Program-made: the position numbers and the translations under genes
Shown here: positions 275 to 46,456 of the stretch, in pieces
How positions within the stretch are numbered: position 1 is the first letter of the stretch
Layout: every line of letters begins with the position of its first letter
Notes under the pieces: generated by a model
Told to the model about the DNA's origin: nothing
The model's input: the letters and a program-made list of their open reading frames with translations, nothing else
The model's database searches: none
NCBI GenBank assembly: GCA_041304605.1
Contig: JBFYNB010000002.1
Coordinates: forward strand, 1-55,384
Length of the DNA stretch: 55,384 nucleotides
Origin: Methanomassiliicoccales archaeon
GTDB lineage: Archaea; Thermoplasmatota; Thermoplasmata; Methanomassiliicoccales; UBA472
Reading direction: 5' to 3'

Positions 275-3200
275 TTATCTCTTCTTCCTCAGGACGAGGA
301 AGGCGACCCCGGCGACTACGGCTACCGCGATAATGGCGATGATGATGTAGAGCATGGTGCTGTCGCCATCATCGTCGTCTCCGCCCTCGGCCGTGGGCGT
401 CGCGTGCTCCACTTCCGAAGCCGATCCTTCGCCCACCGCGTTCACCGCCGTGACCTTGTAGTAATATGTCTGGCCGTTGATCACCGAATCGTCCATGAAG
501 TACGTCAGGTTCCCCCGTTCGAAGAACAGGACCAGGGCGTTCTCGGACGTACCCCGATAGATATTGTAGCCGATGATCGAAGCCCCTCCGTCATCATCAG
601 GCGGGCTCCATGTCAAGGATACCGTGCCGTTGTCCGCGTCGAGCTCTAGGTCCTGCGGGGCGCCGGGAACGGTGCTGGGGTTGGTCACGGTGACCGCCGC
701 CTCATTGCTAGCCTCTCCCGCCCCGGCCGCGTTGGCGGCCGATATGCGATAGTAGTAGGTATCCCCGCCCACGGTCGTGTCGGTGTACTCCAGCTCATCC
801 CCGATGATGGCGATCATGTTCCCGGTGCCCGGTTCGGTCCCCCTGTAGATGTGATAGGCGTTCACCTGGAACCCGTATTCGCGCGCCGGGGACTCCCAAC
901 TAAGCTCGACCGTTCCGTTGACCTCGGCGACCGTCAGGTTCAGGGGGGCGGTCGGTTCTGACCTCTCCACTGCGTAACGGAGATCATGGCTATCCATTTC
1001 GTAATAGCTCATGTGCATTCTACCGTTATCGTCCATGACGATGGACGCCGTGTCCCCGCAGTTGTCCCGGTCCACGAACCCGGTTTTCCACACCCGGTCG
1101 GACATTCTGGCGTACTTCAGGGCGGCGTTGGTCCAATCGTAATAGCCGATATGCACGGAGCCGCCGGGGCCGGCGGTGATGGCGGAGCGCATACCGACGC
1201 TGCCCTCTCCGTCCACTATGGACCACAGCCAGGACCCGCTGGAGTCCGTGGCATAGCGCAGATCGTTCGCATCAGCATCGTAGTAGGAGATGTGGACGTG
1301 ACCGTCCTCGTCCACGGCTATGGCCGTGTCTATGCCGACCGTGCCTCCAGAGTTCACGGTGGTGGAGGACCAGGATCCGCCGGTGTTGTTGGCGTACTTG
1401 AGGTCGTAGTTGGTGCTGTCGTAATAGGAAATGTGTGCGTTGCCCTCGGGGTCCGTCGCTATCGAGCAATAGGCACCGACATCACCGACACTGTCCACCA
1501 CCGCCAACACCCATGGCCCTTCGGTGTTGTTGATGTACCGGAGGTTCCTGTTGGTGAGGTCCCAATAGCTGATGTGCACCTTGTCGTTGACGTCGATGGC
1601 GATCGAGCAATCAAGACCCACGTCTCCGGAGCTGTCCAAAAGTTGAATCGCCCAGGAACCCCCGGCGTTCGTGATGTACTTGAGGTCCTTTTCGGAAGCC
1701 TCATAATAACAAATGTGCACCTTGCCGTTAGAGTCCAAGGCCAGGTCGTTGTATCCCCCGGACTGCATGTTGCGATCGAACCGCGTGACGTTCCAGAATC
1801 CTTCCGCGTTCGTGGCGTACTTGAGGTCCTTGTTGGTCGCGTCGTAATAGGAGACGTACGCATGTCCTTTGGAATCAATGGCCATGGAGCTGGACATTCC
1901 CACGTCATTGAGGTCGTCGACAGTCTGGAACCTCCAAGGGGAGTTGGTGGCGTACCTCAGCACCGATTGCGAACTGTCATAGTATGCGATATGAGCCATG
2001 CCCGCCGAGTCCAGGGCCAGCGAGGCGTGCAATCCGGTATTGCCAGGCGAGTCCACCCTGGACTTCACGTTCTGCGAGCCGGCGTTCGACATGTACTTCA
2101 GGTCGCCATTTGTGACGTCGTAATAGGCTATGCTGCCCATGGAATCCTCTTCCAGAACGTGGGACGCGTACCATCCCACATCGCCCTGCGTGTCAATGGC
2201 GACCGCGATCCAGAAGTCCTCCACCCCTAAAGCGTATTTCAGGTCGCCGCTGGTGATATCGTAGTAGGCGATGCTCACGAAACTGTCCCCTGTCCCCACC
2301 TGGATGGAGGTGTGGGTGCCGGTGATCCCGGCGGTGTCCACGGCGTGCACGAACCAGGAACCGTCCTTGTTGGTGGCGTACCTCAGCTCCATGTTCTGCG
2401 CGTCGTAGTAGCTCATGTGCACCTTATCGTTCGAGTCCAGGGCGATGTCGGAGTACTGCCCGGTGATGCCGTATTGATCGGCCGTCTCCACCGCCCAATC
2501 GCCTCCGGCGTTGGTGGCGTACCCTAGGTCGTCGCTCGAATCGATGCGGAAACTGATGTGCACCTTATCGTTCGAGTCCAGGACGATGGATGGAGCGCTC
2601 CCGCCGTTGTCCAAAGAGTAGACGACGGTGATCGCCCAATCACCGTCGGCGTTGGTGGCGTACCTCAGGTCGCCGGTGGTCTCGCTGTGATAGGCGATAT
2701 GCACCTTGCCCGTCGAGTCCACGGCGATGGAGGTCTCCGTACCGGTGTTCCAATCGAAGTCCACAGTATCGATGACCCATCGGCCCTCGGCGTTGGTGGC
2801 GTATTTCAGGTCTCCGTTGGTGCGGTCATAGTAGCTTATGTGTGCGTTCCCTTCGTGATCCAACGCCAGGGAGCAGTCCTCGCCCGCCCCCAGACCGGAG
2901 TCCACCGTCTCCTTGTACCAGAGGGCATTGGTGGCGTACCGCAGGTCGTACCGCGTTCCGTCGCAGTACGAGATGTGCGCGTTACCTTCGTGGTCTATCA
3001 CCAGGCTGGTCTGGATTATGGTACTTAGGTGGTCGACCTCGTGGACCGTCATCAACCCGTCGAACAGTGTGGCGTACTTGATAGCCTGCTTATTGGTGTC
3101 CGTGTAGGTGAAATGCAAGACCCCCCGAGAATCGATGGCCAGGGAAGCGTACTGGCCCACCCCCGTGCCGCTGTCCAAAACCGATGTCTCCCAGTTACCG

Positions 3201-4042
3201 CCGGAACGATTGGCGTGCTTGAGGTCCCAGTTGGTGTAATCGAAGTAGATTATGTGCGGATCACCTTCAGGGTCGAAAGCCAACGAGGCGTACAAGCCGA
3301 CCCAGTCCGAATCGTCCACGGTACTGGTGACCCAGGCGCCACCGGCGTTGGTGGCGTGCTTGAGGGCGGTGTTGTCCTTGTCATAATAGGCGATGTGCGC
3401 TTTTCCGTCGGGGTCCAGGGCTATGGAGGTGTATTCACCGACCGCTCCATCATCGTCCACCGTGACGTTGACCCAATCGCCCCCGGCGTTCGTGGCGTAC
3501 TTCAGGTGCTCGTGGAAATAATCGTAGTAGCTGATATGGACACCGTTGCTCCCGTCCACCGCGATGTCCGTGTACCAACCCACCCCCCAGACATCGACCA
3601 CTTCTCTCTCCCAGTGACCGTTGGCGTTCGTTATATGAAGCAGTTCACCGTTCACCAGGTAGCTGGCGTGCAACCTTCCGTTGGAGTCCAAGGCGATGGA
3701 GCAATGACTGCCACTGTTGGTCATGCCATCATCGTCTATGACCGAGGTGGTCCATCTCCCGCCCTGGTTGGTGGCGTACTTCAGATGATAGTTGATGAGG
3801 TCATAATAGACGATGTGAATGGAGCCCAGCCCGTCCAAGGCGATGGCGTTGTATTTCCCCACGCTGCCGGTCCCGTCCACCACCTCGACCCCCCAGCCGT
3901 CGTCGCTGCGTATCACCGGCGCCCTGGCCTCCACCACCTCCGTTCCCGGCAGGAGGGCCAGTGTCGAAACTATCATGAACAAAACGATCAGCACGGAGAT
4001 GCCCTTGCTAAGGGGGGCGGACGGTGGACCAGCCTGCACCAT
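275..4042 (-). CDS. Giant cell-surface protein A: signal/anchor helix, about 22 beta-propeller-like 45-aa repeats, 2 FN3 domains, C-terminal TM anchor
   Basis: Part of the 1269-aa ORF 275-4084. I place the start at the ATG at 4042 (MVQAGPPSAPLSKGISVLIV..) because the N-terminus and upstream DNA then align with paralogue B and a TATA box sits about 27 nt upstream. The repeat consensus is H(I/V)(S/A)YYD..N.DLKYATN.GG.W....VD..G.VG.Y.S.A.D..G. There are two FN3-like units (P.AP.NL..... W..P...GG..I.GY.IYRGT...YYY.V.A.N..GEG). The C-terminus is DDDDGDS plus a hydrophobic helix plus RKKR. Confidence 0.85.
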   Translation of the reverse strand: MVQAGPPSAPLSKGISVLIVLFMIVSTLALLPGTEVVEARAPVIRSDDGWGVEVVDGTGSVGKYNAIALDGLGSIHIVYYDLINYHLKYATNQGGRWTTSVIDDDGMTNSGSHCSIALDSNGRLHASYLVNGELLHITNANGHWEREVVDVWGVGWYTDIAVDGSNGVHISYYDYFHEHLKYATNAGGDWVNVTVDDDGAVGEYTSIALDPDGKAHIAYYDKDNTALKHATNAGGAWVTSTVDDSDWVGLYASLAFDPEGDPHIIYFDYTNWDLKHANRSGGNWETSVLDSGTGVGQYASLAIDSRGVLHFTYTDTNKQAIKYATLFDGLMTVHEVDHLSTIIQTSLVIDHEGNAHISYCDGTRYDLRYATNALWYKETVDSGLGAGEDCSLALDHEGNAHISYYDRTNGDLKYATNAEGRWVIDTVDFDWNTGTETSIAVDSTGKVHIAYHSETTGDLRYATNADGDWAITVVYSLDNGGSAPSIVLDSNDKVHISFRIDSSDDLGYATNAGGDWAVETADQYGITGQYSDIALDSNDKVHMSYYDAQNMELRYATNKDGSWFVHAVDTAGITGTHTSIQVGTGDSFVSIAYYDITSGDLKYALGVEDFWIAVAIDTQGDVGWYASHVLEEDSMGSIAYYDVTNGDLKYMSNAGSQNVKSRVDSPGNTGLHASLALDSAGMAHIAYYDSSQSVLRYATNSPWRFQTVDDLNDVGMSSSMAIDSKGHAYVSYYDATNKDLKYATNAEGFWNVTRFDRNMQSGGYNDLALDSNGKVHICYYEASEKDLKYITNAGGSWAIQLLDSSGDVGLDCSIAIDVNDKVHISYWDLTNRNLRYINNTEGPWVLAVVDSVGDVGAYCSIATDPEGNAHISYYDSTNYDLKYANNTGGSWSSTTVNSGGTVGIDTAIAVDEDGHVHISYYDADANDLRYATDSSGSWLWSIVDGEGSVGMRSAITAGPGGSVHIGYYDWTNAALKYARMSDRVWKTGFVDRDNCGDTASIVMDDNGRMHMSYYEMDSHDLRYAVERSEPTAPLNLTVAEVNGTVELSWESPAREYGFQVNAYHIYRGTEPGTGNMIAIIGDELEYTDTTVGGDTYYYRISAANAAGAGEASNEAAVTVTNPSTVPGAPQDLELDADNGTVSLTWSPPDDDGGASIIGYNIYRGTSENALVLFFERGNLTYFMDDSVINGQTYYYKVTAVNAVGEGSASEVEHATPTAEGGDDDDGDSTMLYIIIAIIAVAVVAGVAFLVLRKKR
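956..3890 (-). repeat. Coding tandem-repeat region (about 135-141 nt units) of surface protein A
   Basis: The YYD..LKYATN motif recurs about every 44-47 codons throughout. A 27-nt stretch is identical at 2415-2441 and 2556-2582 (141 nt apart). Boundaries are approximate. Confidence 0.7.
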
Positions 4043-4064
4043 GCTGTAATTACTTCCGGGTGGG

Positions 4065-4073
4065 GTAATAAAC
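4065..4073 (-). promoter_or_regulatory. TATA-box candidate for surface protein A
   Basis: The minus-sense sequence GTTTATTAC is centred about 27 nt upstream of the ATG at 4042. It is followed by ACCCGGAAGTAATTA, homologous to ACCCGAAAGTAATAA upstream of gene B. Confidence 0.4.
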
Positions 4074-4146
4074 ATGCCCACCACCTAGCCCTGTAACTTT
4101 CGATCTTGACCCTCGTGGAAAATATGGGTAAGGGGTTTGGACCGGC

Positions 4147-7100
4147 TCACTTCCTTTTCCGCAGGACAATGATGGCCACCGCGACCACGGCCGCCATGGC
4201 CAGGATGGCGATGACGATCAACAGCGTGATGTCGACCCCGTCAGCATCATGGCGGTCAGAGTTAGGAGTGACGTCCTCCGAGGCGGTCAGGGGGCCTTCG
4301 CCTAAGGCGTTCACCGCGCTCACCCGGTAGTGATAGGTCTGGCCGTTGATGACGTCGTCGTCAGTAAAGGTCAGAACATCGCCCAGGGTGGCCAGCAACG
4401 CTTCCGATCCTGCCGATGTTCCCCTATAGACCTTGTAGCCAGTTATGGGCCACCCGCCGTCGCTGGACGGGGATTGCCAGGTCAAGATCACCGTTCCGTT
4501 CCCGGCCACCGCGTCGAGGTCCCTAGGCGCCGAGGGAACGGACCCGGTGGTGACCGAGACCTCGTTGGAGAGAGCGCCTTCGCCCACGGAGTTCAGGGCC
4601 GAGACCTTGTAATGATACACCTGTCCGTCGGTGACGGTATCATCATCGTAGTTGGTCACATCACCCAATGTGGCCAACAGGGACAGGTTCCCGGAGGTGA
4701 CCCCGCGGTACACCTTGTAGCCGGTGATGGGAGGGCTTCCCAATAGAAGCGTCGGCTCCCAGACCAGTTCCACTGTTCGGTCATCGAGGTCGGCCGTCAG
4801 GTAAGGAGCGGCAGGAAGATCGGGATTGGACACCACCTCGTTGGAGAGCGAGCCTTCGCCGATCGAATTGAACGCGGACACCTGGAAGTAGTATGTGACA
4901 CCGGGCGTCATGGTCTGGTCGGTGTACGTCAGCGTGTTACCGATGGTGTCCAGCAGCGTGACGTCGCCTGAGGATGTGCCGCGATGAACGTAATAACCGA
5001 TTATCGCCGAGCCTCCGTCGTTAACGGGGGCTTCCCAGGACAGGTCGATGTCGTCGAACACCAGCACATAGCTGAGGTTGCGGGGTGCCGAAGGCACCGT
5101 GGCTGGCGTGGCGTGCACCTCCGCGGAAAGGGCGCTCTCCCCCAAGGAGTTGGACGCGCTCACCTGGTAGTAGTAGGTCTCCCCGTTGGTGAGGCCGGTG
5201 TCCGTGTACGTGGAGACGTTGCCTACGCTGGTCAGTTCCACCTCCCCTCCGGAAACCGTTCCGCGATAGACCTTGTAGCCGGTTATCGGCGATCCCCCGT
5301 CGTACGTGGGAGCGTTCCAAGTGAGTTCGACCGCTCCGTCGGAACCGGTCGCCGCGATGTTCAGTGGGGCGGTCGGGACCCCTTGCACGCTGACCGCCAC
5401 GGACCTCTCTTCGCTCAGTTCCCCGGAGCCTACGGCGTTCACCGCCGCCACCGCATAGTAGTACGTTCCGGAGATCGCCGGTAGGTCGGTGTGCGTGAGC
5501 ACGTTCCCGAGCGAGGCGACCCTGGCCCAAACGCCGGGGGTCGTGGCCCGGTAGAGGTTGTATCCGGTGACCTGGAACCCGTGTTCATATTTGGGCGCGG
5601 ACCAGTTTAGATCCACTTCGCCCTCTTCCTCGGCGACCGTTACGTTCAGCGGCGCCGAGGGCTCCGCCAGCTCGTAGGCATAGCGCAGGTCCAGATCGAC
5701 GTGGTCATAGTAGCTCACGTGGACCCTCCAGTCCTCATCGAAGGCCAGGGAGGGGAACCATCCCACGTTCCCGATGTCGATGTTGGCCTTGTTCCAGTAC
5801 GGTGAGTCGAACCAGGCGTACCTTATCGCCCCATTGCTGCCGTCATAGTAGACTATGTGCGGCCTCTCCTCTGGATCGAGGGCGATGGAGGAGTATTGCC
5901 CCACGTTGCCCACCGAATCCACGATGGTCGTGAAACCACTGATCCGGGCGTACTTGGAATCACTGTTAGTGTTATCCCAATAGCTAATGTGCGCGTTGCC
6001 ATGGGAGTCCACCGCGATGGAGGTGTACAGACCGACCTGCCCGTCCGTGTCCACCATCAACGAGCTCCAGTCACCCCCGCGGTTGGTGGCGTACCGCAGC
6101 TCATAGTTGGAACCGGCGTCATAGTAGCTTATGTGCGCGTACCCGTCGTCGTCCACCGCGATGTCGGTGTAATACCCGACATCGCTGAGATAGGCGACCC
6201 TGGTGGTGATCCAGGAGCCGCCGGTGTTGTTGGCGTACCACAGGTCCTTGTTCACGGCGTCGCTGTAGCTTATGTGCGCGTACCCGTCGTCGTCCAAGGC
6301 CAGGGCGCAATGTTCCCCGCGGTCGCCCACGCCGTCCACGGTGGTCTTCGACCACGTGCCGCCGGCGTTGGTTGCGTATTTGAGATCCTTGTTGGTGGCG
6401 TCGAAGTACGCGACGTGCAGTTTGCCGCCTTGGTCCATGGCCAGGGAGGCGTAGCCGCCCACCTCGCCTGTCCCGTCTATGATGGACGTCGCCCAGGAAC
6501 CACCAGCATTGGTGGCGTAGTCGAGGTCCTTGTTGGTGCTGTCGTAGTACGCAATATGCGCGGAACCGTTCCCGTCCACCACTAAGGAACTGTACATACC
6601 CCGATTGACGCCGAACCGACCATCGACCACCTGGAGGCGCCAGGGAGCCTCGGTGGCGTACTTCATGCGTGTGTTGTTCTCGTCGTAGTAGATGATATGA
6701 GCATAGCCGCCGTGGTCTGTGTCTAACCTGCTGAACTTTCCCACGTTGTAGACGCCGTCCAGGGTGGACGTGGTCCAGCCGGACACCCCTCCCCTTGCCA
6801 CTTTCAGAGAACAGTTGGTGTCATCGAAGTAGCTGATGATAGCGTTGCTGCCTACCATCCCTATCGAGGAGTATCTGCCTACATGACTGGAACCGTCAAC
6901 CGTGGTCTTGACCCAGCTCCCTGCGGCGTTGGTGGCGTACTTCAGGGCGGAGTGCGTCAGGTCCAGATAGCTGACATGTGCTTTGTTGTTGCGATCGAGG
7001 ACCATGGACAGATGGTCGCCGACCTGGTCGGCCGAATCCACCGTGTCCTTGACCCAGCTTCCTCCGGCGTTGGTCACGTACTTTAGATCGCCTCCCACGA

Positions 7101-8751
7101 CCTCGTAATACGCGATGTGCACCTTGCCGTTGGAATCAAGGGCCAGAGAGGATTGTATACCGGCGTTGCCGTCGGTGTCCAGCACGGTCTGCGCCCAGGT
7201 CCCGCCGGCGTTGGTTGCGTACAATAGATCCTGACCGGACCAGCGGATGAAGCTGAGGTGCACCTTGTAGTTGCTGTCCACGGCTATGGAGGGGTTGCCA
7301 CCAGTGCTGTCCGTTGAGAATATCGTGGTGGCCGACCAGGCCCCGGCCAGGTTGGTGGCGTACTTGAGGTCGGAGGTGTTCGAATCGTAATAGGCGATGT
7401 GCACCTTGCCCTCGGGGTCCAGGGCTATGCCGGGGCTCTGCGGGATCGCCCCGCTCATCTCTCTGGTGTCGACGATGGTGCGGGTCCAGCTGCCTCCTGC
7501 GTTATTGGCGTACACCAGCGCGGCAGGGAAATAATCTACGAATGCCAGATGCACGAACCCCTTGTCGTCCAGGACCATGTCGAAGGCGTCGCGGTTCTGC
7601 CCTAGGGCGTCGAGGGCCTCGATGGCCCAAACGTCGTCGGTGGCGTATTTCAGATCGTTATTGGCGGTCTCCTTGTAGCTGATGTGCACCTTTCCGTCAG
7701 CATCGAACGCCAGGGAGCAATCGCCGAAGTTGCCACCCTGGTCCACAACAATGCTGCCCCAGCAGTCGTTCGGCTTGCTAGCATACTTCAGGACCTTGTT
7801 CGTCCGGTCGGTGTACACTATGTGCGGCTGGCCGTCTGGGTCTATGGCCACTGAGGAGTGCTCCCCGGCCAGAGGCCCGGAGTCGATCACCGTGCTCGCC
7901 CCGGTGAGGCCGGACATGCGGAGGTACAACAGGTCATCGTTGGTCGCATAATAGCAGGTGAGGTGAACGATGCCGTCAGGACCTACGGCGAGGGAGCTGG
8001 TCTCCCCGATGTCGTTGGGGGATAGGAGCGTTATCACGGTCCACGCCCCATCGGCGTTGGTGGCGTATTTCAGATCAGAGTTCGTTACGTCGTAGAAGCT
8101 TATGTAGGCGTTTCCGTCGGAGTCCAAGGCGATGGATGAACCCCTTCCAACATCCCCCTCGGTGTCCAGGGCGAAGGTCTCCCACGAACCGTTGGCGTTG
8201 GTGGCGTACTTCAGGTCCTTATTGGTGGCATCGTAATAGCTGATGTGCGAGTACCCATCGCCATCCACGGCGATATCGGTGTCGTACACCATGCCGGACT
8301 GTACCGTTGCCTTGCTCCAGGCTCCCCCAGAATTAGTGATGTACAAGAGACTGGCCGGATCGCTGCTGTGATAATAGCTGGCATGGACAGATCCTTCGGA
8401 GTCCAGGACCATGGAGGCGTACATCCCCACATCACCGTCATCATCGATGACCGATGTGGACCACCTTCCCCCCAGGTCCGTGGCGTACTTCAGTTGCATG
8501 TTCGTCCCGTCCAAATAGATCACATGGGCCGTCCCGTCCGGCCCGACGCCGACGTTGTTGAACGAACCGACCGCCCCGGTTCGGTCCAGGACCTCGATGG
8601 CCCATCCCTCGGCGGTACGGAGCAAGGGCGCCTTCGCCTCCGCCTCGTCGGTGAACGGGACGAGGACGAACGTCGAGGTGATCATGAGAAAAAGGATCAG
8701 CAGCGATGCGCCTTTTCGGGCGAACGAGAACGCGGGGGCGACCTGCGCCAT
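4147..8751 (-). CDS. Giant cell-surface protein B: signal/anchor helix, about 24 beta-propeller-like 45-aa repeats, 5 FN3 domains, C-terminal TM anchor
   Basis: 1534-aa ORF with the same repeat family as A. There are five FN3-like units, each beginning P(S/T/A)AP and containing GY(K/N/Y)(V/L)(Y/H)RG and YY(Y/F/H).V.A.N. The C-terminus is a hydrophobic helix plus LRKRK. Confidence 0.88.
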   Translation of the reverse strand: MAQVAPAFSFARKGASLLILFLMITSTFVLVPFTDEAEAKAPLLRTAEGWAIEVLDRTGAVGSFNNVGVGPDGTAHVIYLDGTNMQLKYATDLGGRWSTSVIDDDGDVGMYASMVLDSEGSVHASYYHSSDPASLLYITNSGGAWSKATVQSGMVYDTDIAVDGDGYSHISYYDATNKDLKYATNANGSWETFALDTEGDVGRGSSIALDSDGNAYISFYDVTNSDLKYATNADGAWTVITLLSPNDIGETSSLAVGPDGIVHLTCYYATNDDLLYLRMSGLTGASTVIDSGPLAGEHSSVAIDPDGQPHIVYTDRTNKVLKYASKPNDCWGSIVVDQGGNFGDCSLAFDADGKVHISYKETANNDLKYATDDVWAIEALDALGQNRDAFDMVLDDKGFVHLAFVDYFPAALVYANNAGGSWTRTIVDTREMSGAIPQSPGIALDPEGKVHIAYYDSNTSDLKYATNLAGAWSATTIFSTDSTGGNPSIAVDSNYKVHLSFIRWSGQDLLYATNAGGTWAQTVLDTDGNAGIQSSLALDSNGKVHIAYYEVVGGDLKYVTNAGGSWVKDTVDSADQVGDHLSMVLDRNNKAHVSYLDLTHSALKYATNAAGSWVKTTVDGSSHVGRYSSIGMVGSNAIISYFDDTNCSLKVARGGVSGWTTSTLDGVYNVGKFSRLDTDHGGYAHIIYYDENNTRMKYATEAPWRLQVVDGRFGVNRGMYSSLVVDGNGSAHIAYYDSTNKDLDYATNAGGSWATSIIDGTGEVGGYASLAMDQGGKLHVAYFDATNKDLKYATNAGGTWSKTTVDGVGDRGEHCALALDDDGYAHISYSDAVNKDLWYANNTGGSWITTRVAYLSDVGYYTDIAVDDDGYAHISYYDAGSNYELRYATNRGGDWSSLMVDTDGQVGLYTSIAVDSHGNAHISYWDNTNSDSKYARISGFTTIVDSVGNVGQYSSIALDPEERPHIVYYDGSNGAIRYAWFDSPYWNKANIDIGNVGWFPSLAFDEDWRVHVSYYDHVDLDLRYAYELAEPSAPLNVTVAEEEGEVDLNWSAPKYEHGFQVTGYNLYRATTPGVWARVASLGNVLTHTDLPAISGTYYYAVAAVNAVGSGELSEERSVAVSVQGVPTAPLNIAATGSDGAVELTWNAPTYDGGSPITGYKVYRGTVSGGEVELTSVGNVSTYTDTGLTNGETYYYQVSASNSLGESALSAEVHATPATVPSAPRNLSYVLVFDDIDLSWEAPVNDGGSAIIGYYVHRGTSSGDVTLLDTIGNTLTYTDQTMTPGVTYYFQVSAFNSIGEGSLSNEVVSNPDLPAAPYLTADLDDRTVELVWEPTLLLGSPPITGYKVYRGVTSGNLSLLATLGDVTNYDDDTVTDGQVYHYKVSALNSVGEGALSNEVSVTTGSVPSAPRDLDAVAGNGTVILTWQSPSSDGGWPITGYKVYRGTSAGSEALLATLGDVLTFTDDDVINGQTYHYRVSAVNALGEGPLTASEDVTPNSDRHDADGVDITLLIVIAILAMAAVVAVAIIVLRKRK
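5663..8590 (-). repeat. Coding tandem-repeat region of surface protein B
   Basis: Periodic YYD..(L/M)KYATN..G.W motif about every 45 codons from near the N-terminus to RYAYELAE. The FN3 block starts at the CCC Pro codon near 5660. Boundaries are approximate. Confidence 0.7.
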
Positions 8752-10783: not shown

Positions 10784-11842
10784 ATGAGACCGTCCCTCCG
10801 TCGCATAGACCGACTGGACCTGTGGGCGGCCATTCTGGCCGCGCCATTCCTTTGGCTTCTGCAGGTGGTCATCTCCGCCGCCTGGAACGAGGGAGCGGCC
10901 GCCTGGATGTCGGCCGCCTTCGGTATCGTGGTGGCCTTCCTTTTCCTGCACGGGGTGGCGGTGCTGCGCCGGGTCCGCAGGAAAGGAAGAGTGAGGTTCA
11001 GTAAAGTTCTCCTCTGGCTGCTGGCGCTGTCGCTGGTCTTCTCCCTGCTGCTCCTGCCGAGCATCTACCTCGGGGACGCCGAGCTGGTCCTGGAGGGAGC
11101 GGACCTCTACACCCCCCTGGGATTCGTGCTGGCGATCCTCGCGCTCTGGTTGGCGTTCTTCATCCTGGCCCTGGGAATGCTGTGCGCCGCCTGCAGCGCC
11201 ATGTGGTTCCTGGTCAAGGTCATGCGCTGGATCGTTCCCGGTTTCCTGAGCGACGTGAGAAGTGTCAAGTACAGCAAACGGGACGGACTTTTAGCCAGGG
11301 TGGAGGTGTGGGCGGTGGCGTTCCCCAGAGTGCTCGATCCGTCCACCCTGCGGCTGGAACCCCAGCCCCTGGACGACAAGGGGGCCAAGGACCGCTTCGT
11401 TCAGGCCATGGTCTGGCAGCTGGTCCTCGGAATGCTTCTGGCGGTGTATATCAGCCTGAACCCGGTGCTGCTGCAGACCATGACGTTCAGCCAGACCTTC
11501 GGACTGGTGTCCATAACCTCGATTCTGGTTCCTCTGCTCCTGCTGCCCTGGTCCACCCTGGAAGCGCTCGGTGGCCGGGTGGACGGAGTTAGAGAGGATT
11601 TCTATCTGCACAAAGGCGCCCGGACCAGGATGATGCAGACCGTGGTCGCCCTGGGCACCCTGTTCCTGATCTTGCGATTGGCGGTGCAGGAGATCGGCGC
11701 GGACGTGATATTCTGGCGCCTGGCCGGTTACTCGCTCACCCTGTTCATCGTTTCCGGCCTGGTCTCCTTCGCCTACTTCAACTACTTCGAGAGGGAGCTG
11801 GTCCAGGAATTGCGTGAACGGCTGACCAAGAAGGGGTTCTGA
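10784..11842 (+). CDS. Polytopic membrane protein of unknown function
   Basis: 352-aa ORF with about 8 hydrophobic segments. I recognise no motif. Coding is supported by length, codon bias and a T-rich tract directly downstream. Confidence 0.6.
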   Translation: MRPSLRRIDRLDLWAAILAAPFLWLLQVVISAAWNEGAAAWMSAAFGIVVAFLFLHGVAVLRRVRRKGRVRFSKVLLWLLALSLVFSLLLLPSIYLGDAELVLEGADLYTPLGFVLAILALWLAFFILALGMLCAACSAMWFLVKVMRWIVPGFLSDVRSVKYSKRDGLLARVEVWAVAFPRVLDPSTLRLEPQPLDDKGAKDRFVQAMVWQLVLGMLLAVYISLNPVLLQTMTFSQTFGLVSITSILVPLLLLPWSTLEALGGRVDGVREDFYLHKGARTRMMQTVVALGTLFLILRLAVQEIGADVIFWRLAGYSLTLFIVSGLVSFAYFNYFERELVQELRERLTKKGF

Positions 11843-12124: not shown

Positions 12125-13123
12125 ATGGTGAGCCGAAGACGCCCAGAGACATTACCTATCGTTCTGGTCGCGATAATGGCGATCCTCTCTGTGGCCTTGG
12201 CAACGACCCCTCCCCTGGAGGCGGCACCTATGCCCACCATGGTGATCGACGGCACCATCTCTGACCTTGAATACTCACATCAGGCCTCCTTCGGGGGTGG
12301 TGACTTTATTCTGCACTGGACCGTCGATGGCGATGTCATCAACATCGCTATGGAGGCCCGGACCACCGGATGCGTCTCCATAGGCATCGATCCTGAAGCG
12401 GCCATGCTGAACGCGGACATGGTGGTGGGTTTCGTCACTTCCACCGGGGAGGTGGAGGTGGACGACCAATTTTCCACGGGAACCTTCGGACCGCATGTCT
12501 CGGACATTTCTCTAGGGGGTACCAATGACATACTCGCATCAAATGGCAGCGAGGCCGATGGGGTGACCATCATCGAGTTCCAAAGAGCCCTGGATACCGG
12601 TGACGCTTACGACCGGGCCATCCCCTCCAATGGTTCAGTGAAGATAATCTGGTCCATTTCCCAGGAGGATGATCATAGCGTTATCCATTCGCAAAGGGGT
12701 TCGGGAGAGATCGATTTTGGGAGCGGCGAGTCCTCTGAAGCTCTGGAGCTTTGGCCCTACCACGCCCTGGTCATGACCATTGGGACCGCCATCATGACGG
12801 CCAGCATCGCCATGATATACCTGAGGAAGAGGGCCAACGGATGGTACCGATGGCACAAGAGGCTGGGGTTCATCGGCGCGTCCCTGGTGATCATCGGTCT
12901 GGCCATAGCCGTCTACATGGTCGGCGGGGAACACCTTCGCGTGCTGCACTCCTATGTTGGGCTGGCGGCCCTGGTCCTTCTCCTGTTACCGGTGCCCTTG
13001 GGTATGGCTGTGTCCAAGGTCAAGGAACGGAAGCGAATGAGGTCCATTCACCTTTGGGTCTCCCGTGCGGCAGTGATCGCGGCCATAATAGCCATAGTCC
13101 TGGGCCTTCTAAGAGTTCTTTGA
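12125..13123 (+). CDS. DOMON-domain protein fused to a 4-helix cytochrome-b561-like membrane domain (four conserved His)
   Basis: Start chosen at the ATG at 12125 (MVSRRRPETLPIVLVAIMAILSVALA.. signal-like, GGAGG 14 nt upstream). The ORF track begins at 12017. The DOMON-like core is DFILHWTVDGDVINIAMEARTTGCVSIGIDP..MLNADMVVGFV. The C-terminus has 4 TM helices, each with one His (YHALV, WHKRLG, LHSYVG, IHLWVS). Confidence 0.7.
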   Translation: MVSRRRPETLPIVLVAIMAILSVALATTPPLEAAPMPTMVIDGTISDLEYSHQASFGGGDFILHWTVDGDVINIAMEARTTGCVSIGIDPEAAMLNADMVVGFVTSTGEVEVDDQFSTGTFGPHVSDISLGGTNDILASNGSEADGVTIIEFQRALDTGDAYDRAIPSNGSVKIIWSISQEDDHSVIHSQRGSGEIDFGSGESSEALELWPYHALVMTIGTAIMTASIAMIYLRKRANGWYRWHKRLGFIGASLVIIGLAIAVYMVGGEHLRVLHSYVGLAALVLLLLPVPLGMAVSKVKERKRMRSIHLWVSRAAVIAAIIAIVLGLLRVL

Positions 13124-13357
13124 GGGCATCCGGCCTGGAGACACTGGGTCGGAACAACCCCGCCATCCCTTGGGAAATGCTCCGCGACTTGAGACAGAAC
13201 GGCCGGACCTGGGCGGGTGATGAACCGGTCCTTAGCGGTGTGGTCTTCCAATTCTTATTGGGACTGGGTCGCCCCGCGGCCATAAATAGCTTTTATTAAC
13301 CGGCATCTTGCTAGCAACTAGCTGACCGTCCCTAGAGGATATGGTGGGGGACGGAGA

Positions 13358-14362
13358 ATGTACGCGGGAGGTGTGTGCCGTTTGAAAAGGCCGATCTGTG
13401 CAAGAACCCTGGTCGTGCTGGTGACGATCATCCTATTGGTCTCGCCTTTCCTTGACCTAGGTTCGGCGGCATCCGCGAACTCCTCCGCGCCCCCGGTCAT
13501 GGACGGCGAGATCGTCGAAGAAGAGTACGAACATGGCACCGACCTCTCCGGGGGCGACTTCCTTCTTCGATGGCAAGTTATTGACGATACCATCTTTTTC
13601 GCCATGAGCGCCATCACCGACGGATACCTGTCCCTCGGGTTCGACCCTGAGTTCCTGATGAAGGGCGCGGACCTGGTCGTCGGCTGGGTCAACGGTACGG
13701 GGAGCGCGTTTGTCGTTGACGCCTATTCCGCCGGTCAGTTCGGCCCGGTGGTCCGGGACATCGACCAGGGTGGGACCGATGACATTCTGGCATCGGCAGG
13801 GGCGGTTCGGGAGGGCTGGACGGTCATCGAGTTCAGCAGGGCGCTCTGCACCGGTGACCTGTACGACAAGGAGATCCCCCTGGTCGGTGAGCTCGTGGTC
13901 ATGTGGGCCATCGGCGGGGTCTTCGACCCGGCGACCATGCCGGACGACGGAGGCATGGTCACCATCTCCATCTCCTCCGGCGCGTCGTCCGAGAGTGAGC
14001 CGGCCTATTCGTACCTGGTCTTCCTTGCGCCTGTTGCCTTGTCCGCATCTATCGCCGCCTTGCTGGCGCTGCTGGGTCCGGCCAGGTTCCGGAAGACCGG
14101 CCACCTGTGGCTGGGAGTGGTTGCCGCAGGACTGGTTTCATGCGCCGCTCTCGTCGTGGTCCTTTTCGGCGTGAAGGAGACCCCTCCCGGACTGGCATGG
14201 CCAGTGCTGGTCGCCACGGCATTTGTTGTCTCCACCGTTCTGATAGGTGCGGCCGCCCTGCGCATCGGACGGTGCCCTTGGCTTAAAAAGGGGCATGCCT
14301 TGTCCGGCGCGGCGGCAATGGTCGGCCTGGTCTGGTGTACGCTGTCCTTATTTTGGTTATGA
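13358..14362 (+). CDS. DOMON-domain membrane protein, paralogue of 12125-13123 with only two TM histidines
   Basis: A signal-like N-terminus is followed by DFLLRWQVIDDTIFFAMSAITDGYLSLGFDP..MKGADLVVGWV. There are 4 C-terminal TM helices, with His only in GHLWLG and GHALSG. GGAG lies just upstream of the ATG. Confidence 0.7.
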   Translation: MYAGGVCRLKRPICARTLVVLVTIILLVSPFLDLGSAASANSSAPPVMDGEIVEEEYEHGTDLSGGDFLLRWQVIDDTIFFAMSAITDGYLSLGFDPEFLMKGADLVVGWVNGTGSAFVVDAYSAGQFGPVVRDIDQGGTDDILASAGAVREGWTVIEFSRALCTGDLYDKEIPLVGELVVMWAIGGVFDPATMPDDGGMVTISISSGASSESEPAYSYLVFLAPVALSASIAALLALLGPARFRKTGHLWLGVVAAGLVSCAALVVVLFGVKETPPGLAWPVLVATAFVVSTVLIGAAALRIGRCPWLKKGHALSGAAAMVGLVWCTLSLFWL

Positions 14363-17919: not shown

Positions 17920-18026
17920 TCGCGAAGAACATGTCCCGTACCTGTCCTAGACCGTGGCGAGGGCGCGGTCGACAGCATTATATGCATTGAACTGACAACT
18001 TGTTAACAAACCTCAGGGTTGTCAAT

Positions 18027-18491
18027 ATGGCCGAACTACACCCGTCGAAAGTGCATGTCCGATACCTCAACGATGACGGTCCTTCCGATTTTTCACTGCC
18101 GCGGCGTTACACCCTTACCCATTCGGACCGCACCGGGGACAGGTTCCTGACCATAGGCAGGGACTTTGACCTAGAGCAGATCTCGGGCGGTTATACGCGT
18201 TTCATGCGGGATGAGGTCATGGCGGAATGGCTGGACGATTCGGGGCCGAGATTGAACGTTTACTTCCATGTCAGCGGAGGACTGGTCTTCGGCCATGCTG
18301 GCCTCCGTTGCCGGATATTCCGGTCGTGTCAGCGGTCCGTTCTGCAGGCCCTTCGTCACGGGGACGAGGGACTGTACAGGACGAGGCCTGAGCTGGACGA
18401 GCGGCCGGCTCTGGTCCATTACCGTTCCAACAAGGCTCGCTACAATTTTGTCGAGGAGAGCGGGCCTCTGAAAGAGTACCGTCTGATATGA
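18027..18491 (+). CDS. Staygreen (SGR, Mg-dechelatase family) homologue
   Basis: LPRRYTLTHSD, RDEVMAEW, NVYFHVSGG, LRHGDEGL and RPELDE..LVHYRSN align with plant SGR motifs as I recall them (LPRTYTLTHSD, RDEVVAEW, HVHCHISGG, FVHGDGNL, YPELQEALVWVYFHSN). The ATG at 18027 is preferred over the TTG at 18000. Confidence 0.75.
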   Translation: MAELHPSKVHVRYLNDDGPSDFSLPRRYTLTHSDRTGDRFLTIGRDFDLEQISGGYTRFMRDEVMAEWLDDSGPRLNVYFHVSGGLVFGHAGLRCRIFRSCQRSVLQALRHGDEGLYRTRPELDERPALVHYRSNKARYNFVEESGPLKEYRLI

Positions 18492-20224: not shown

Positions 20225-20944
20225 ATGCTACCCATCGCCCCCCTGATGATAGAACACCGCTTGATCGAGAGCATGGCCGCCGTCATGAAGGACCATGCGG
20301 AGAGGCTGCACACCGGGCAGGAACTGGACCCGCGCTTCATCCCTGAGGTCGTGGATTTCATGCGGACCTACGCGGACCGCACCCATCACGGCAAGGAAGA
20401 GGACATACTTTTCAAGGTCCTGAAGGGCAAGGGACTGAGCGAGGAGCACCGGCGGGTCCTGGAGAAGCTGGAGATGGACCACGTCAAGGCCCGGGATATG
20501 GTCGGCAAGCTCTCCGCCCTGGGCGAGGAGCACTTGAAGGGAAGTCCCAGCGCGGCCTACCAGGCGTCGATGCTCATGAAGGACCTGGTGGCGCTCTACC
20601 ATGCCCACATCGAGCTGGAGGACCAGGGCTTCTTCGTGCCGGTGATGGAATATCTATCGAACGAGGAACGCCGGGCGATGCTCGAGGAGTTCAGGGACTT
20701 CGATTCCCGGATGGTGCACGAGCGCTATGCCAAGACCGTGCAGCGGTTGGGAGGAACTAAGGAAGTGCACCTGGCCCGAGAGGAGGGAGACCGCTGGCGG
20801 TGCCGGGTGTGCGGATATATCTACGATCCCAAGGAGGGCGACCGGGAGAACGGAGTGCCGGCCGGGACGGCGTTCGCGGACGTGCCCGATGACTGGGTGT
20901 GCCCAGTGTGCGGGGCAGGGAAGGACGCTTTCGAGCACCTCTGA
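20225..20944 (+). CDS. Hemerythrin-like domain fused to C-terminal rubredoxin
   Basis: HHE-type ligand pattern ([26 protein letters not shown]) plus the rubredoxin knuckles [10 protein letters not shown] ... [13 protein letters not shown]. Confidence 0.85.
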
Positions 20945-20983: not shown

Positions 20984-21712
20984 ATGAGCGATGAGCCGGG
21001 ACGCGTTTTTCAGATGGAGACCAAGCATCGCCGGGACCGCTTGGTCGGCCGCTACATGGACTGGGAGCGGAAGCCGGATACCTACAAGGAGTACCCGGAC
21101 CGGCCGAGGATCCCACTTCCGGAGCCGAATCGCCCGGCGGTATCGTTGGACGATGTGCTGAGGAACCGACGAAGCGTGCGCCGTTTTTCCGAATCTCCCG
21201 TGTCTCTAGAGGACCTGTCCTACCTGCTCTGGGCCAACGACGGCATCACCAGAAGGGAGAAGGGATACGAGTTCCGCACCGCTCCCTCCGCCGGAGCGCT
21301 GTACCCGGTGGAGACCTATGTCGCCGTGAACGATGTGATGGGGGTGGCACCAGGCGTCTATCATTACTCGGTCAAGCACCACGCGCTGGAGCTGATCAGG
21401 AAAGGCCATCTGGGAGAGGAGGTGGCCCGCGCCGCCCTGGACCAGGGCATGTGCGCCTCGGCTCCAGTAGTGCTTATGTGGACGGCGATGTTCGAACGCA
21501 GCCGCTGGAAGTATGGGGAAAGGGCCTACCGCTACGTATACCTGGACGCCGGACACATGGCTCAGAACCTGGCCCTGGCCGCGGTATCGCTGGGCCTGGG
21601 AACCTGCCAGATCGCCGCTACCTACGATGATGAGGTCAACGAACTGCTGGGCGTGGACGGAGAGGAGGAGAGCGTGCTTTACATGACCGTGGTGGGGCGC
21701 CCGAAAGAGTAG
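20984..21712 (+). CDS. SagB-type dehydrogenase / nitroreductase-family protein
   Basis: YKEYPD..LP.P, RRSVRRF, RTAPSAGALYPVETYV and GVYHY..H.L are typical of the SagB-type nitroreductase subfamily. Confidence 0.8.
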   Translation: MSDEPGRVFQMETKHRRDRLVGRYMDWERKPDTYKEYPDRPRIPLPEPNRPAVSLDDVLRNRRSVRRFSESPVSLEDLSYLLWANDGITRREKGYEFRTAPSAGALYPVETYVAVNDVMGVAPGVYHYSVKHHALELIRKGHLGEEVARAALDQGMCASAPVVLMWTAMFERSRWKYGERAYRYVYLDAGHMAQNLALAAVSLGLGTCQIAATYDDEVNELLGVDGEEESVLYMTVVGRPKE

Positions 21713-21749: not shown

Positions 21750-23192
21750 ATGCTCTGCCCCAACTGCGGAAACCATCCCTCGCCTGAAGACAAGTTCTGC
21801 ATGGAATGCGGCTCACCCAAGGCCGTCTTCGTTGACGATAGAGTTCCCCCTGCCCAGGCACCCAGCCCGCCGCAGCCGGAACCTCCCAAGGATGTCCCGC
21901 AACCGCCCGTGACGGTAACGCCCACGCCTATGGAGCCTTCAGGGCAGCAACCTCCGCAGGAGCCTCCGGTCTCTCAACCTCAGCCGCAGTATGCACCGCA
22001 ACAGGCACCACCATTCGCTCCACCGGAGAAGAGGTCGATGGACCAGCCGCCGCAGCCACAGGGGCCTCCCGTTTACGCCCAGCAACCGCAGTACCAGCCG
22101 CCAAATCAGCAACCTTATCAACAGCCCTATCAGCCGACGCGGCCGGTGGCACCTCCTCAATACCAGCAACCGTATCCTCCGCAGGCGCAACCGCTCCCGC
22201 AGATGATCCCCTACCAGAGATCCAGCAACGAGATGACCCCCTCGGGCAACAACCAGATCGGACAGTACCAGGCCTACGTGCCGCCCAAGGCCCCCAAGGC
22301 CGATATCCAACTTCCCCCTGCCCCCGTTCCTCCGGTTCAGGCACCTCCGATGCCGGCCCCGCAGCCTTATGCACCTCCGCAACCTCAGCAGGCGCCACCG
22401 GTCCCGCAACCGCAGCCGGTACAGCAGCCATACCAGCCTGCGCCTCCAGCGGCAGCTCCGACGCAACCCCAGCCCGGTCCCTGGGCCAGTCAGCAGCCCC
22501 CGGCGCAGCCGCCCGCACAACCATATCGACCTGCCCAGCAGCAGCCGGTGCCCCCCACCTACCGACCCTATCCGCCGGCCGTTCAGCAGTCATCGAGCGC
22601 GCCCCCGTACCAGGCGCCTCAGCCGCAGTACCATCAGCCGTATCAACAGCCCAATGTGCAGCCGCAGCCTGTGCAGCAGCCTTATCAGCCTTATTCACAG
22701 CCGCAACCGCCGCAGGCGCCACCGCAACCCTACGGGCCGCAGCCGATGGGAGCGTCGCCGGGCGTCGTTATGCTCATGCCCCAGGTCGCCTCGGCCGCCA
22801 TGCTGCGTCCGAACGAACGGGCGGTGCAGGCCTGGAGGGCGGGGTTGGAGCAGGACATTTACGATCCGGAGGAGGGCGAGCACGGCACCTTCAACATCAG
22901 CGGGGTGCTCATCGCCACCGATCAGCGCCTGATATTCGTGCAGGAGAAGGGAGTGTTTGGAAAGAGCTACAGGCCCCTGGAAAGCGTGGAGTACCGGGAG
23001 ATAGTCAACTGGAAGCTTGGACAGACCATGCGCACTAGGTCGCTGCAGGTCGACGTGGCCCAGGGACGTAACAGGCGCAAGGTGTTCAACAACATCAACG
23101 AGGTGGACCCCGCGACCCTGAACGTTCTGACGCCCTGGACCCTGGACCAGGTAAAAGATCTGCTGGGAAGGCTGAAGAGCGCCGCTCCCTGA
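21750..23192 (+). CDS. Zinc-ribbon protein with about 300-aa Pro/Gln-rich low-complexity region and C-terminal PH-like (bPH/YokE-like) domain
   Basis: The N-terminal CPNCG..(12)..CMECG zinc ribbon is followed by residues about 30-335 made almost only of P, Q, A, Y and V. These include reiterated PQPQPVQQPYQP units. The C-terminal 140 aa (..GVLIATDQRLIFVQEKG.....ESVEYREI..) resemble bacterial PH domains (tentative). Confidence 0.65.
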   Translation: MLCPNCGNHPSPEDKFCMECGSPKAVFVDDRVPPAQAPSPPQPEPPKDVPQPPVTVTPTPMEPSGQQPPQEPPVSQPQPQYAPQQAPPFAPPEKRSMDQPPQPQGPPVYAQQPQYQPPNQQPYQQPYQPTRPVAPPQYQQPYPPQAQPLPQMIPYQRSSNEMTPSGNNQIGQYQAYVPPKAPKADIQLPPAPVPPVQAPPMPAPQPYAPPQPQQAPPVPQPQPVQQPYQPAPPAAAPTQPQPGPWASQQPPAQPPAQPYRPAQQQPVPPTYRPYPPAVQQSSSAPPYQAPQPQYHQPYQQPNVQPQPVQQPYQPYSQPQPPQAPPQPYGPQPMGASPGVVMLMPQVASAAMLRPNERAVQAWRAGLEQDIYDPEEGEHGTFNISGVLIATDQRLIFVQEKGVFGKSYRPLESVEYREIVNWKLGQTMRTRSLQVDVAQGRNRRKVFNNINEVDPATLNVLTPWTLDQVKDLLGRLKSAAP

Positions 23193-38365: not shown

Positions 38366-39109
38366 CTAGAGCCGGCCGAGCGCCTCCAGAAGCGCCAGCA
38401 CCACCGTGCGCGGATGCGGCGGGCAGCCTGGGATGTAGATGTCCACCGGCAGAGCTTCGGCCACCCCGTTCCCTGCGGCGAACGTTCCGCCGAACGGCCC
38501 TCCGGATATGGCGCAGGTGCCCATGGCCGCCACCAGGCGCGGCTCCGGCGTGGCGTTGTAGGTCTTCATGAGCGCGGGCAGCATGTTGCGGGTCACCGGA
38601 CCGGTGACCAGGAGCATATCGGCATGCCTGGGAGAGGCCACTATCTTGATGCCGAAGCGTTCCAGGTCGTACATCGGGTTCGAGAGGGAGTTCACCTCCA
38701 CCTCGCAGCCGTTGCAGGATCCGGCGTCCACCTCGCGTATGGCCAGGGACCTTCCGAGAACCTTGCGCGCCTCGTCCCGCAGTTGAAGTTTCAGCTGGGG
38801 CAGCGGGACGTTGCGGCGGAGGACCAGTGATGAACGTTCAGATACCGCCGGCACCTCGACCGAGAACGTTATGGCATCCCTCGGGCAGGCCGGGAGGCAA
38901 TCGCCGCAGAACAGGCACTTTCCGACGTCCACGCTCCAATCCCCTTCGATGGAAATGGCTGAAGTGGGGCATGCTGGAACGCATTCCCCGCACCTATCGC
39001 AGCGGGAATCGGCCATGGGGGCCAGGGCGCGGCCTTGCCGCTGCAACAGCTGCAGCGGCTCGGTGACCACTTTTTTATCCCGGACCCTCCTCTCGATCAT
39101 TTCTAGCAT
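38366..39109 (-). CDS. Fused 2[4Fe-4S] ferredoxin (HycF/NuoI-like) plus NuoB/HycG-like small subunit of the Ehr-type complex
   Basis: The N-terminus has CDRCGECVPACP and CLFCGDCLPACP. The C-terminus has DAGSCNGCEVE, GTCAISGGPF and IPGCPPHP, so the four Cys of the proximal cluster are retained. Confidence 0.85.
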   Translation of the reverse strand: MLEMIERRVRDKKVVTEPLQLLQRQGRALAPMADSRCDRCGECVPACPTSAISIEGDWSVDVGKCLFCGDCLPACPRDAITFSVEVPAVSERSSLVLRRNVPLPQLKLQLRDEARKVLGRSLAIREVDAGSCNGCEVEVNSLSNPMYDLERFGIKIVASPRHADMLLVTGPVTRNMLPALMKTYNATPEPRLVAAMGTCAISGGPFGGTFAAGNGVAEALPVDIYIPGCPPHPRTVVLALLEALGRL

Positions 39110-39118
39110 GGTAACCCC

Positions 39119-42105: not shown

Positions 42106-42106
42106 G

Positions 42107-42766: not shown

Positions 42767-42775
42767 TGGATCACC

Positions 42776-43717: not shown

Positions 43718-43721
43718 GGCC

Positions 43722-45710: not shown

Positions 45711-45894
45711 GGCCTCAATGAGCTAAGGACGAGAAGGAAATGGACATCATCGCCTCTTAAGGTGCTCGATGGGCGGCGCACTCTAGGATGTATCTTAAAT
45801 ATTTCTATTTGACCAAAAAATCTTTAACGGTCGGTGCGAAGGAGCTGGCAAAAGCATTATCAGACCTGTCCGCCATTTTCTGACCGGGAGAAAG

Positions 45895-46404: not shown

Positions 46405-46437
46405 TCGTCGGGGGCTGATGGTCCATCGTATTAATTT

Positions 46438-46456
46438 AAAATAAAATATTTTTATT
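46438..46456. promoter_or_regulatory. AT-only palindrome AAATAAAA-TAT-TTTTATTT (terminator T-run and/or TATA element)
   Basis: Lies 34 nt after the ferritin-like gene stop and about 130 nt before hdrD. A second small IR, CCATCC-CGAT-GGATGG, lies at 46472-46487. Confidence 0.35.

Follow-up and report, generated by a model that had tools for sequence, protein, structure and literature searches.

Can an archaeon from an order that is generally described as lacking cytochromes (PMC10804542, PMC4153887) encode a haem wire that crosses its membrane? The question is raised by a pair of adjacent genes in the first 55,384 nucleotides of contig JBFYNB010000002.1 (assembly GCA_041304605.1, Methanomassiliicoccales archaeon), the whole stretch that was analyzed here and that is referred to below as the window. 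A preliminary description of its sequence had pointed to two neighboring open reading frames (ORFs) on the plus strand, each joining a DOMON β-sandwich to four trans-membrane (TM) helices, and had likened the first of them to the fusions of DOMON and cytochrome b561 known as CYBDOM proteins. Both ORFs and all of the motifs quoted for them are present as described, and the pattern of ORFs, domains and His motifs is far beyond chance. We propose that gene 1 probably encodes a minimal prokaryotic CYBDOM-type protein, a single-polypeptide trans-membrane b-haem electron conduit, and this proposal rests on sequence comparison and structure prediction.

Results

Domain architecture and fold of gene 1

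Gene 1 (12125-13123, plus strand; ORF list and Pfam) encodes 332 amino acids (aa) from an ATG codon that has a Shine-Dalgarno (SD)-like sequence, AAGGAGGT, 12 nt upstream; the gene caller chose an alternative TTG start at 12083, which yields the 346-aa database entry P0001. The two domains assigned in the preliminary description both passed their Pfam cut-offs. DOMON (PF03351) scored 85.3 bits (cut-off, 32.7), and Cytochrom_B561 (PF03188) scored 31.0 bits (cut-off, 23) over residues 212-329 and profile positions 1-131 of 137; DUF4079, which is related to Cytochrom_B561, gave a sub-threshold match. The DOMON β-sandwich lies at about residues 38-198 (12236-12718, plus strand), as judged from Pfam, the strands of an AlphaFold2 model (mean predicted local distance difference test score [pLDDT] of 73; β-sandwich at residues 52-197) and Foldseek. 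It is followed by a b561-type core of four helices (12737-13120, plus strand; Pfam, profile alignment and Foldseek), which span residues 210-233, 238-266, 274-296 and 302-331 of the model.

The motifs YHALV, WHKRLG, LHSYVG and IHLWVS start at residues 212, 243, 274 and 308, and the His residue of each, H213 (12761-12763), H244 (12854-12856), H275 (12947-12949) and H309 (13049-13051), is near the start of one of the four predicted helices. The idea that one His per helix is arranged as in b561 proteins was borne out when a profile of gene 1 and nine full-length homologues was searched against the whole PDB. Only two distinct sequences were matched, human Dcytb (5zle; E = 0.0037) and Arabidopsis b561 (4o6y; E = 0.0044), and in the profile alignment the four family His residues fall on the Dcytb axial ligands H50, H86, H120 and H159 and on H51, H84 and the two following ligand His residues of the Arabidopsis protein. 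A b561-like fold of the TM domain had been named beforehand as a test, and the gene 1 model matched the b561 crystal structures: Foldseek aligned its helices with TMt values of 0.47-0.53 and root mean square deviations (rmsd) of 2.8-3.4 Å at a probability of 1.0 (4o7g and 4o6y, TMt 0.53 and rmsd 2.8-2.9 Å; 5zle, TMt 0.47).

The loops RKRANGWYRWH and KERKRMRSIH of gene 1 are strongly basic and are, for that reason, predicted to be cytoplasmic. With this topology, the outer ends of helices A and C would bear H213 and H275 and the inner ends of helices B and D would bear H244 and H309, which is the b561 pairing. In b561 proteins the core is flanked by TM1 and TM6 to give six helices; only four follow the DOMON domain of gene 1, and its only hydrophobic stretch outside the core is the N-terminal signal or anchor segment (MVSRRRPETLPIVLVAIMAILSVALA; 12125-12202, plus strand), which is delimited by a basic N terminus, hydrophobic residues 6-33 and a model helix at residues 10-26. 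Application of the positive-inside rule to this segment suggests that the DOMON domain is extracellular. No ALLVYR-type ascorbate motif was recognized in gene 1.

The closest structural match of the DOMON domain was the non-haem DOMON of dopamine beta-hydroxylase (DBH; 4zel, E = 4e-8), and the sandwich also resembles the haem-binding cytochrome domain of cellobiose dehydrogenase (CDH; 1pl3 and 1d7b; E = 2e-5 to 6e-5), the gamma subunit of ethylbenzene dehydrogenase (EBDH; 2ivf_C; E = 2e-4) and that of nitrite oxidoreductase (NXR; 7b04_C). A profile of the DOMON domain alone had no significant match in the PDB to the solved haem-DOMONs and a weak one to DBH (E = 0.14); an alginate lyase match in the same search was spurious. 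Foldseek matches of both genes to pentameric ligand-gated channels were rejected as a generic resemblance of a β-sandwich plus four helices (rmsd, 15-20 Å). On the basis of family conservation, M94 (12404-12406) and H188 (12686-12688) are the candidate haem ligands of the domain; H124 (12494-12496) is conserved as well, as is H270 (12932-12934) in an outer loop of the core.

Gene 1 is under purifying selection. The ratio of nonsynonymous to synonymous substitution rates (dN/dS) against its orthologue at syntenic locus L082 is 0.24 for the whole gene and 0.34 for the TM core, and the ORF is intact in three genomes. Its G+C content at third codon positions (GC3) is 0.69, and that of its neighbors is about 0.83.

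Gene 2 and the syntenic slot

Gene 2 (13358-14362, plus strand; ORF list and Pfam; 334 aa, with an alternative TTG start at 13382) likewise encodes a DOMON domain and four TM helices and lies about 235 nt from gene 1 on the same strand. An AT-rich, TATA-like element, ATAAATAGCTTTTATTAA, was read from the sequence at 13281-13300 (plus strand), about 60 nt upstream of gene 2, and suggests that this gene may have its own promoter. The two genes are clear paralogues (BLASTP, 40.5% identity over 259 aa; E = 2e-49).

The second copy had been described as degenerate, with only two TM His residues, and our analysis agrees. Its DOMON domain scored 66.9 bits against the same cut-off, and Pfam found no match to Cytochrom_B561. 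Gene 2 contains three His residues in total, H59, H249 (14102-14104) and H313 (14294-14296), of which the last two align with the cytoplasmic-side pair of gene 1, H244 and H309. Eight sequences were aligned, five of the gene-2 type and three of the gene-1 type. Gene 2 keeps the DOMON Met (M101; 13658-13660) and has other residues at the positions of H124, H188, H213, H270 and H275; H249 and H313 are the only TM His residues that are invariant across this alignment, down to 38% identity. The gene-2 type is defined by three close homologues (69-79% identity) and by the 38%-identical one in the metagenome-assembled genome (MAG) AnMBR.bin351. The gene 2 model (pLDDT, 78; helices at residues 218-239, 248-271, 277-303 and 307-333) matched 4zel with an E value of 4e-8, and a b561 fold was not recovered, no b561 structure being among the best 50 Foldseek matches. 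Gene 2 is nevertheless under purifying selection, with dN/dS values of 0.33-0.40 (0.26-0.41 in the TM part).

A rough neighbor-joining tree built on the DOMON region groups the gene-1 clade of this lineage with its gene-2 clade as sisters, apart from all other homologues, which indicates that gene 2 arose by duplication inside the clade and lost its ligands afterward. The residues that gene 2 retains would allow for no more than one haem, on the cytoplasmic side, and the DOMON domain of gene 2 would be without a His ligand.

Close relatives share the gene order AMP-ligase, 352-aa membrane protein, slot and DUF998. In the window, both genes occupy the slot; gene 1 is alone there in GCA_054813335.1 (L082) and gene 2 in GCA_054813355.1 and three metagenome contigs (L083-L086), and AnMBR.bin351 (L052) has a diverged gene 2 at this position, where an aminopeptidase-like gene and a glycosyltransferase-like gene have been inserted. 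Because most of the related genomes carry gene 2 alone, gene 2 does not depend on gene 1; it is neither a pseudogene nor an obligate partner. The 352-aa protein (10784-11842) is a multi-pass membrane protein encoded directly upstream of the DOMON gene or genes in all seven syntenic loci; it is 68-91% identical where measured (L052 and L082) and has no match in Pfam or NCBIfam.

The prokaryotic DOMON-b561 family

The preliminary description had spoken of DOMON-b561 proteins as known mainly from eukaryotes, which overstates their rarity elsewhere. When 1.84 billion representatives were searched exhaustively with a profile, 7620 matches were obtained at E < 1e-3 and 516 at E < 1e-30, and the full DOMON plus b561 architecture was found in at least 103 representatives that are mutually at most 50% identical; the architecture is therefore not rare in prokaryotes. 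Across these 103 full-length sequences, the candidate ligands are highly conserved in the DOMON domain (M94, 92%; H188, 89%) and in the core (H213, 94%; H244, 96%; H275, 94%; H309, 96%), as are two further His residues, H124 (84%) and H270 of the outer loop (86%).

Among species-representative genomes, full-length relatives occur in Thermoplasmata, in MAGs labeled Methanomassiliicoccales, in many Spirochaetota MAGs, in Kuenenia and in another planctomycete. Relatives that consist of the DOMON domain only occur in Asgard archaea, Caldiserica, Chloroflexota and several methanogen orders, and a Thermococcaceae locus gave a near-full-length tblastn match of which the recovered ORF is DOMON only. 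A full-length protein, P0074 (MBD3190630.1), is encoded in a Candidatus Heimdallarchaeota archaeon MAG, and DOMON-only relatives were seen in Heimdall-, Hod- and Hermod-archaeota (L033, L034, L037, L040, L041, L048, L055 and L056).

Some members of the family are considerably larger. In Thermoplasmatota, proteins 1175-1475 aa long have five to seven DOMON domains in tandem (L009, 5277-9704; L015, 5322-9584; L025, 1928-6088; L012, 6159-9686). The Met/His/His set is present in nearly every repeat, and the b561 core at the C terminus has all five of the conserved His residues. From their residue pattern, these multi-DOMON proteins could possibly form chains of up to about nine b-haems that reach out from the membrane. 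Weak Pfam matches to CDH-cyt and EB_dh were obtained on homologous DOMON repeats. In two planctomycete MAG proteins, a cytochrome P460 domain (about 100 bits) is N terminal to the DOMON domain and four-helix core (L030, 7065-8894, Ca. Kuenenia stuttgartiensis MAG; L022, 804-2393, Planctomycetota MAG). P460 is a redox enzyme domain, and the fusion ties the module to an enzyme outside the cytoplasm; in such relatives, electrons probably enter from the outside. Other family members have Ig-like or fn3 spacers.

Clustering of the ORFs within 6 kb at 35 loci showed no redox partner gene that is conserved beside the DOMON-b561 gene in any lineage. Conservation of neighbors is at the level of single lineages, with FtsK, SLT, BacA and a sugar ABC transporter in spirochaetes and a PAS/GAF regulator and Ig-repeat proteins in three Thermoplasmata. 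Given the multi-DOMON arrays, the P460 fusions, the spacers and the lack of a conserved neighbor, DOMON-b561 appears to be a self-contained, modular trans-membrane electron-transfer unit that has been joined to varied extracytoplasmic modules.

The architecture as such is already catalogued, both as precomputed Pfam domains and in the NCBI name of a 73%-identical homologue of gene 1, "cytochrome and DOMON domain-containing protein." No paper on any prokaryotic DOMON-b561 protein was found in the literature searched.

Host lineage

The host had been taken for a Methanomassiliicoccales-type methanogen. The order is supported: the HdrD protein of the window shares 63% identity with its counterpart in Ca. 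Methanomassiliicoccus intestinalis and 65-69% with proteins from Methanomassiliicoccales MAGs, all of its named best matches fall within the order, and the syntenic relatives L052 and L082 carry the same label. The other half of the claim found no backing in the genes at hand, since no mcr, methyltransferase or pyl gene is present in the 55-kb window, a result that covers the window and not the whole organism; we infer that the host is a methanogen.

On the minus strand, at 38366-47771, a six-gene membrane complex resembling group-4 [NiFe]-hydrogenases (Ech/Mbh type) is followed by rubrerythrin and a stand-alone HdrD; the hydrogenase-like complex and HdrD fit a Methanomassiliicoccales-type energy metabolism. 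The 37 confident genes of the window end in TGA (22), TAG (10) or TAA (5), and the amber codon is thus not avoided. This usage is uninformative on pyrrolysine (Pyl) decoding, because TAG usage contrasts within the order (Borrel et al.). A scan for pylT and other RNAs found no Rfam family that reached threshold anywhere in the window, and the tRNA-Ser(CGA) called by ARAGORN at 51157-51248, inside an Lhr helicase ORF and without Rfam support, is probably a false positive.

Other features of the window

At 20225-20944, a hemerythrin HHE domain is encoded as one protein with a rubredoxin at its C terminus; this gene and the nitroreductase gene that follows it (20984-21712) belong to a loose cluster of the oxidative-stress type. 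A protein of the Staygreen family (PF12638, 120 bits), the family of the plant chlorophyll Mg-dechelatases, is encoded at 18000-18491; the gene is also present in L052, L084 and L085 and is absent from L082 and L083. Two adjacent giant paralogues on the minus strand (275-4084, 1269 aa; 4147-8751, 1534 aa) share about 43% identity; both contain internal repeats, carry fibronectin type III domains at the C terminus and are probably cell-surface proteins. The bin at 22-24 kb has the highest G+C content of the window (0.647) and a GC skew of -0.14, and a putative 480-aa ORF at 21750-23192 has an N-terminal zinc ribbon as its only match.

Discussion

How might gene 1 work? If it encodes an electron conduit, as we consider probable, the signal or anchor segment would place its DOMON domain on the outer face of the membrane, with the four helices of the b561 core following. 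One b-haem would be held near the outer face by H213 and H275 and a second near the cytoplasmic face by H244 and H309; a third, exposed to solvent, would probably have M94 and H188 in the DOMON domain as its ligands. Electrons would then hop between a cytoplasmic-side partner, facing the strongly basic surface, and an extracellular partner, for which a metal, a humic substance, a redox protein, an oxidant and a partner cell are all candidates. Ascorbate, the electron donor in eukaryotes, is not expected to be the cytoplasmic partner here, as the host is an anaerobic archaeon that is not known to make it.

The paralogues provide an internal comparison. Gene 2 has lost five outer-side residues in the same lineage in which gene 1 has kept its full set. 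The constraint on gene 1 is thus apparently active, and the contrast argues, indirectly, that gene 1 would still bind cofactors. A role in extracellular electron exchange is plausible. It is also attractive, because M. luminyensis is reported, in a 2024 preprint, to carry out methanogenesis driven by cathodes and by partner bacteria and to take up extracellular electrons without a known conduit (bioRxiv 10.1101/2024.03.29.587405).

The closest known counterparts of gene 1 are the eukaryotic CYBDOM proteins, such as HYP1 and CRR of Arabidopsis and SDR2/FRRS1 of animals. In both, a secreted N-terminal DOMON domain with a Met/His pair precedes a b561 core in which four His residues on four consecutive helices form two pairs, one at each face of the membrane. 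Gene 1 differs from them in having four TM helices in place of six, in the marginal similarity that it shows to solved b561 proteins (E about 4e-3) and in that its prokaryotic homologues form tandem multi-DOMON arrays and P460 fusions, neither of which has, to our knowledge, been described for eukaryotes. The ligands modeled for HYP1, M90/H174 for a third haem and H211-H278 and H245-H314 for the core, of which the apical His pair was also tested by mutation (PMC10784544), are close in position and spacing to M94/H188, H213-H275 and H244-H309 of gene 1. What is new here relative to the eukaryotic proteins is the minimal four-helix form, its occurrence in an anaerobic archaeon and the presence of a naturally degenerate paralogue.

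Other systems are more distant. Gene 1 shares with the CYB561 family and Dcytb (5zle, 4o6y) a four-helix core of the di-haem type, basic residues on the cytoplasmic face and the LHS(Y/W) motif around the third His (VLHSYVG in gene 1, LHSWVG in the family); unlike these proteins it lacks the two flanking helices and is fused to a DOMON domain. The fold of that domain is the one found in AIR12, the CDH cytochrome domain, EBDH gamma and NXR gamma (Foldseek probability of 1.0 for 1pl3/1d7b, 2ivf_C and 7b04_C), and its conserved Met and His, compared by spacing, are similar to the ligands of CDH and HYP1; however, proteins of these types are soluble or are enzyme subunits and are not fused to a membrane di-haem core. 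Escherichia coli CybB (PF01292), MsrQ, HdrE and VhtC are functional analogues in which stacked bis-His b-haems carry electrons across the membrane. They belong to other Pfam families, react with quinone or methanophenazine and are usually encoded next to a partner enzyme, neither of which is true of gene 1. Finally, the multihaem c-type conduits of methanogens and ANME, such as MmcA of Methanosarcina, resemble the system proposed here in their extracellular role and in the logic of a chain of haems, which is clearest in the multi-DOMON relatives; the difference is that non-covalent b-haems in repeated β-sandwiches would require neither CXXCH motifs nor cytochrome c maturation.

Several observations weigh against a haem conduit. 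The 55-kb window contains no gene for haem biosynthesis or uptake. Because sirohydrochlorin is already made by methanogens on the way to F430 and corrinoids, haem synthesis would require just the Ahb steps in addition, and scavenging of haem by the host is conceivable; still, AhbABCD homologues were found in 1 of 12 Methanomassiliicoccales genomes (PMC8351635), and siroheme decarboxylase was found in none of the seven Methanomassiliicoccales of an Ahb-NirDH alignment (PMC9478090), whose supplementary alignments are trimmed and include NirJ-like radical-SAM entries from haem-free methanogens as well. The lack of a conserved redox partner gene at the 35 loci points in the same direction. Furthermore, gene 1 has been lost from close relatives in which the His-poor gene 2 persists, and a full conduit is therefore dispensable in this clade. 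The Met/His/His set is shared by homologues from Thermococcus and several methanogen orders that consist of the DOMON domain only. Some of these lineages probably lack haem synthesis, and the DOMON ligand may for that reason not be haem.

This last point leads to the alternative that survives best, although we consider it rather unlikely, namely, that only the membrane core binds haem, two b-haems in all, and that the DOMON domain binds copper or iron through its Met/His/His set, or a surface glycan, and serves as the substrate-binding or docking site of an enzyme resembling a ferric or cupric reductase. Three DOMON residues are conserved (M94, H124 and H188) and not two, and Met plus two His resembles copper sites. 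Dcytb has a metal-binding His near its apical haem, to which the conserved H270 near the proposed outer haem of gene 1 may be compared. That the best structural match is the non-haem DOMON of DBH also fits this explanation, but the haem-binding cytochrome domain of CDH, EBDH gamma and NXR-C match with a probability of 1.0 as well, and DBH has a Leu where the DOMON-b561 family has the Met. Moreover, the weak CDH-cyt and EB_dh matches fall on homologous repeats, the 94 residues between the Met and the His are similar to the spacing of 84 in HYP1, and long arrays of DOMON domains make more sense as a chain of haems.

It is improbable, in our estimation, that gene 1 is a haem conduit with a purely protective role, by analogy with E. 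coli CybB (a superoxide oxidase) and MsrQ, carrying cytoplasmic reductant to the surface to quench oxidants or to repair an oxidized envelope. The window is rich in oxidative-stress genes (the hemerythrin-rubredoxin fusion, rubrerythrin, nitroreductase and a flavin reductase), a rubredoxin and a nitroreductase are retained in syntenic relatives, and gene 1 stands alone, without a respiratory partner, and is dispensable in relatives. The linkage to the stress genes is loose, however, extending over several kilobases and separate transcription units and confined to this clade, and the multi-DOMON arrays and P460 fusions of the wider family suggest electron transfer over a longer range or of a catabolic kind.

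Equally improbable is a decaying relic in a haem-free organism, with gene 1 unexpressed or an apoprotein and with a nonredox role such as surface or S-layer anchoring, or none: the order is described as cytochrome-free and its Ahb genes are rare (PMC10804542, PMC8351635), gene 2 has already lost five ligand residues, gene 1 is missing altogether from relatives and has a GC3 below that of its neighbors, but gene 1 keeps all eight conserved Met/His positions, an SD-like sequence, an intact ORF in three genomes and low dN/dS values, and gene 2 is itself constrained, with H249 and H313 invariant.

A broader extension of the conduit proposal can be offered only tentatively, and we regard it as more doubtful than the proposal for gene 1 itself. 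DOMON-b561 proteins might be widespread, unrecognized b-haem extracellular conduits of anaerobic archaea and bacteria, with three to about nine haems. Some Methanomassiliicoccales would then not be cytochrome-free and would exchange electrons with minerals, electrodes or partner cells, and the Heimdallarchaeota member would further suggest an archaeal ancestor for the CYBDOM and b561 proteins of eukaryotes.

In conclusion, the Methanomassiliicoccales are treated as the model for methyl-reducing methanogens without cytochromes, and their energy metabolism is drawn without a membrane haem protein. A ligand-complete, selectively maintained DOMON-b561 gene provides a concrete and readily testable conduit candidate for the order, and the statement that these archaea lack cytochromes is not true, at the gene level, for the order as a whole. 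Gene 2, a "half-wire," is a ready-made natural control for sorting required haem sites from dispensable ones. As a lead, the gene pair itself is less striking than the wider family, above all its multi-DOMON arrays and Asgard members: the arrays could be b-haem counterparts of the multihaem c-type cytochrome wires, and the Asgard proteins may bear on the origin of the b561 and CYBDOM proteins of eukaryotes.

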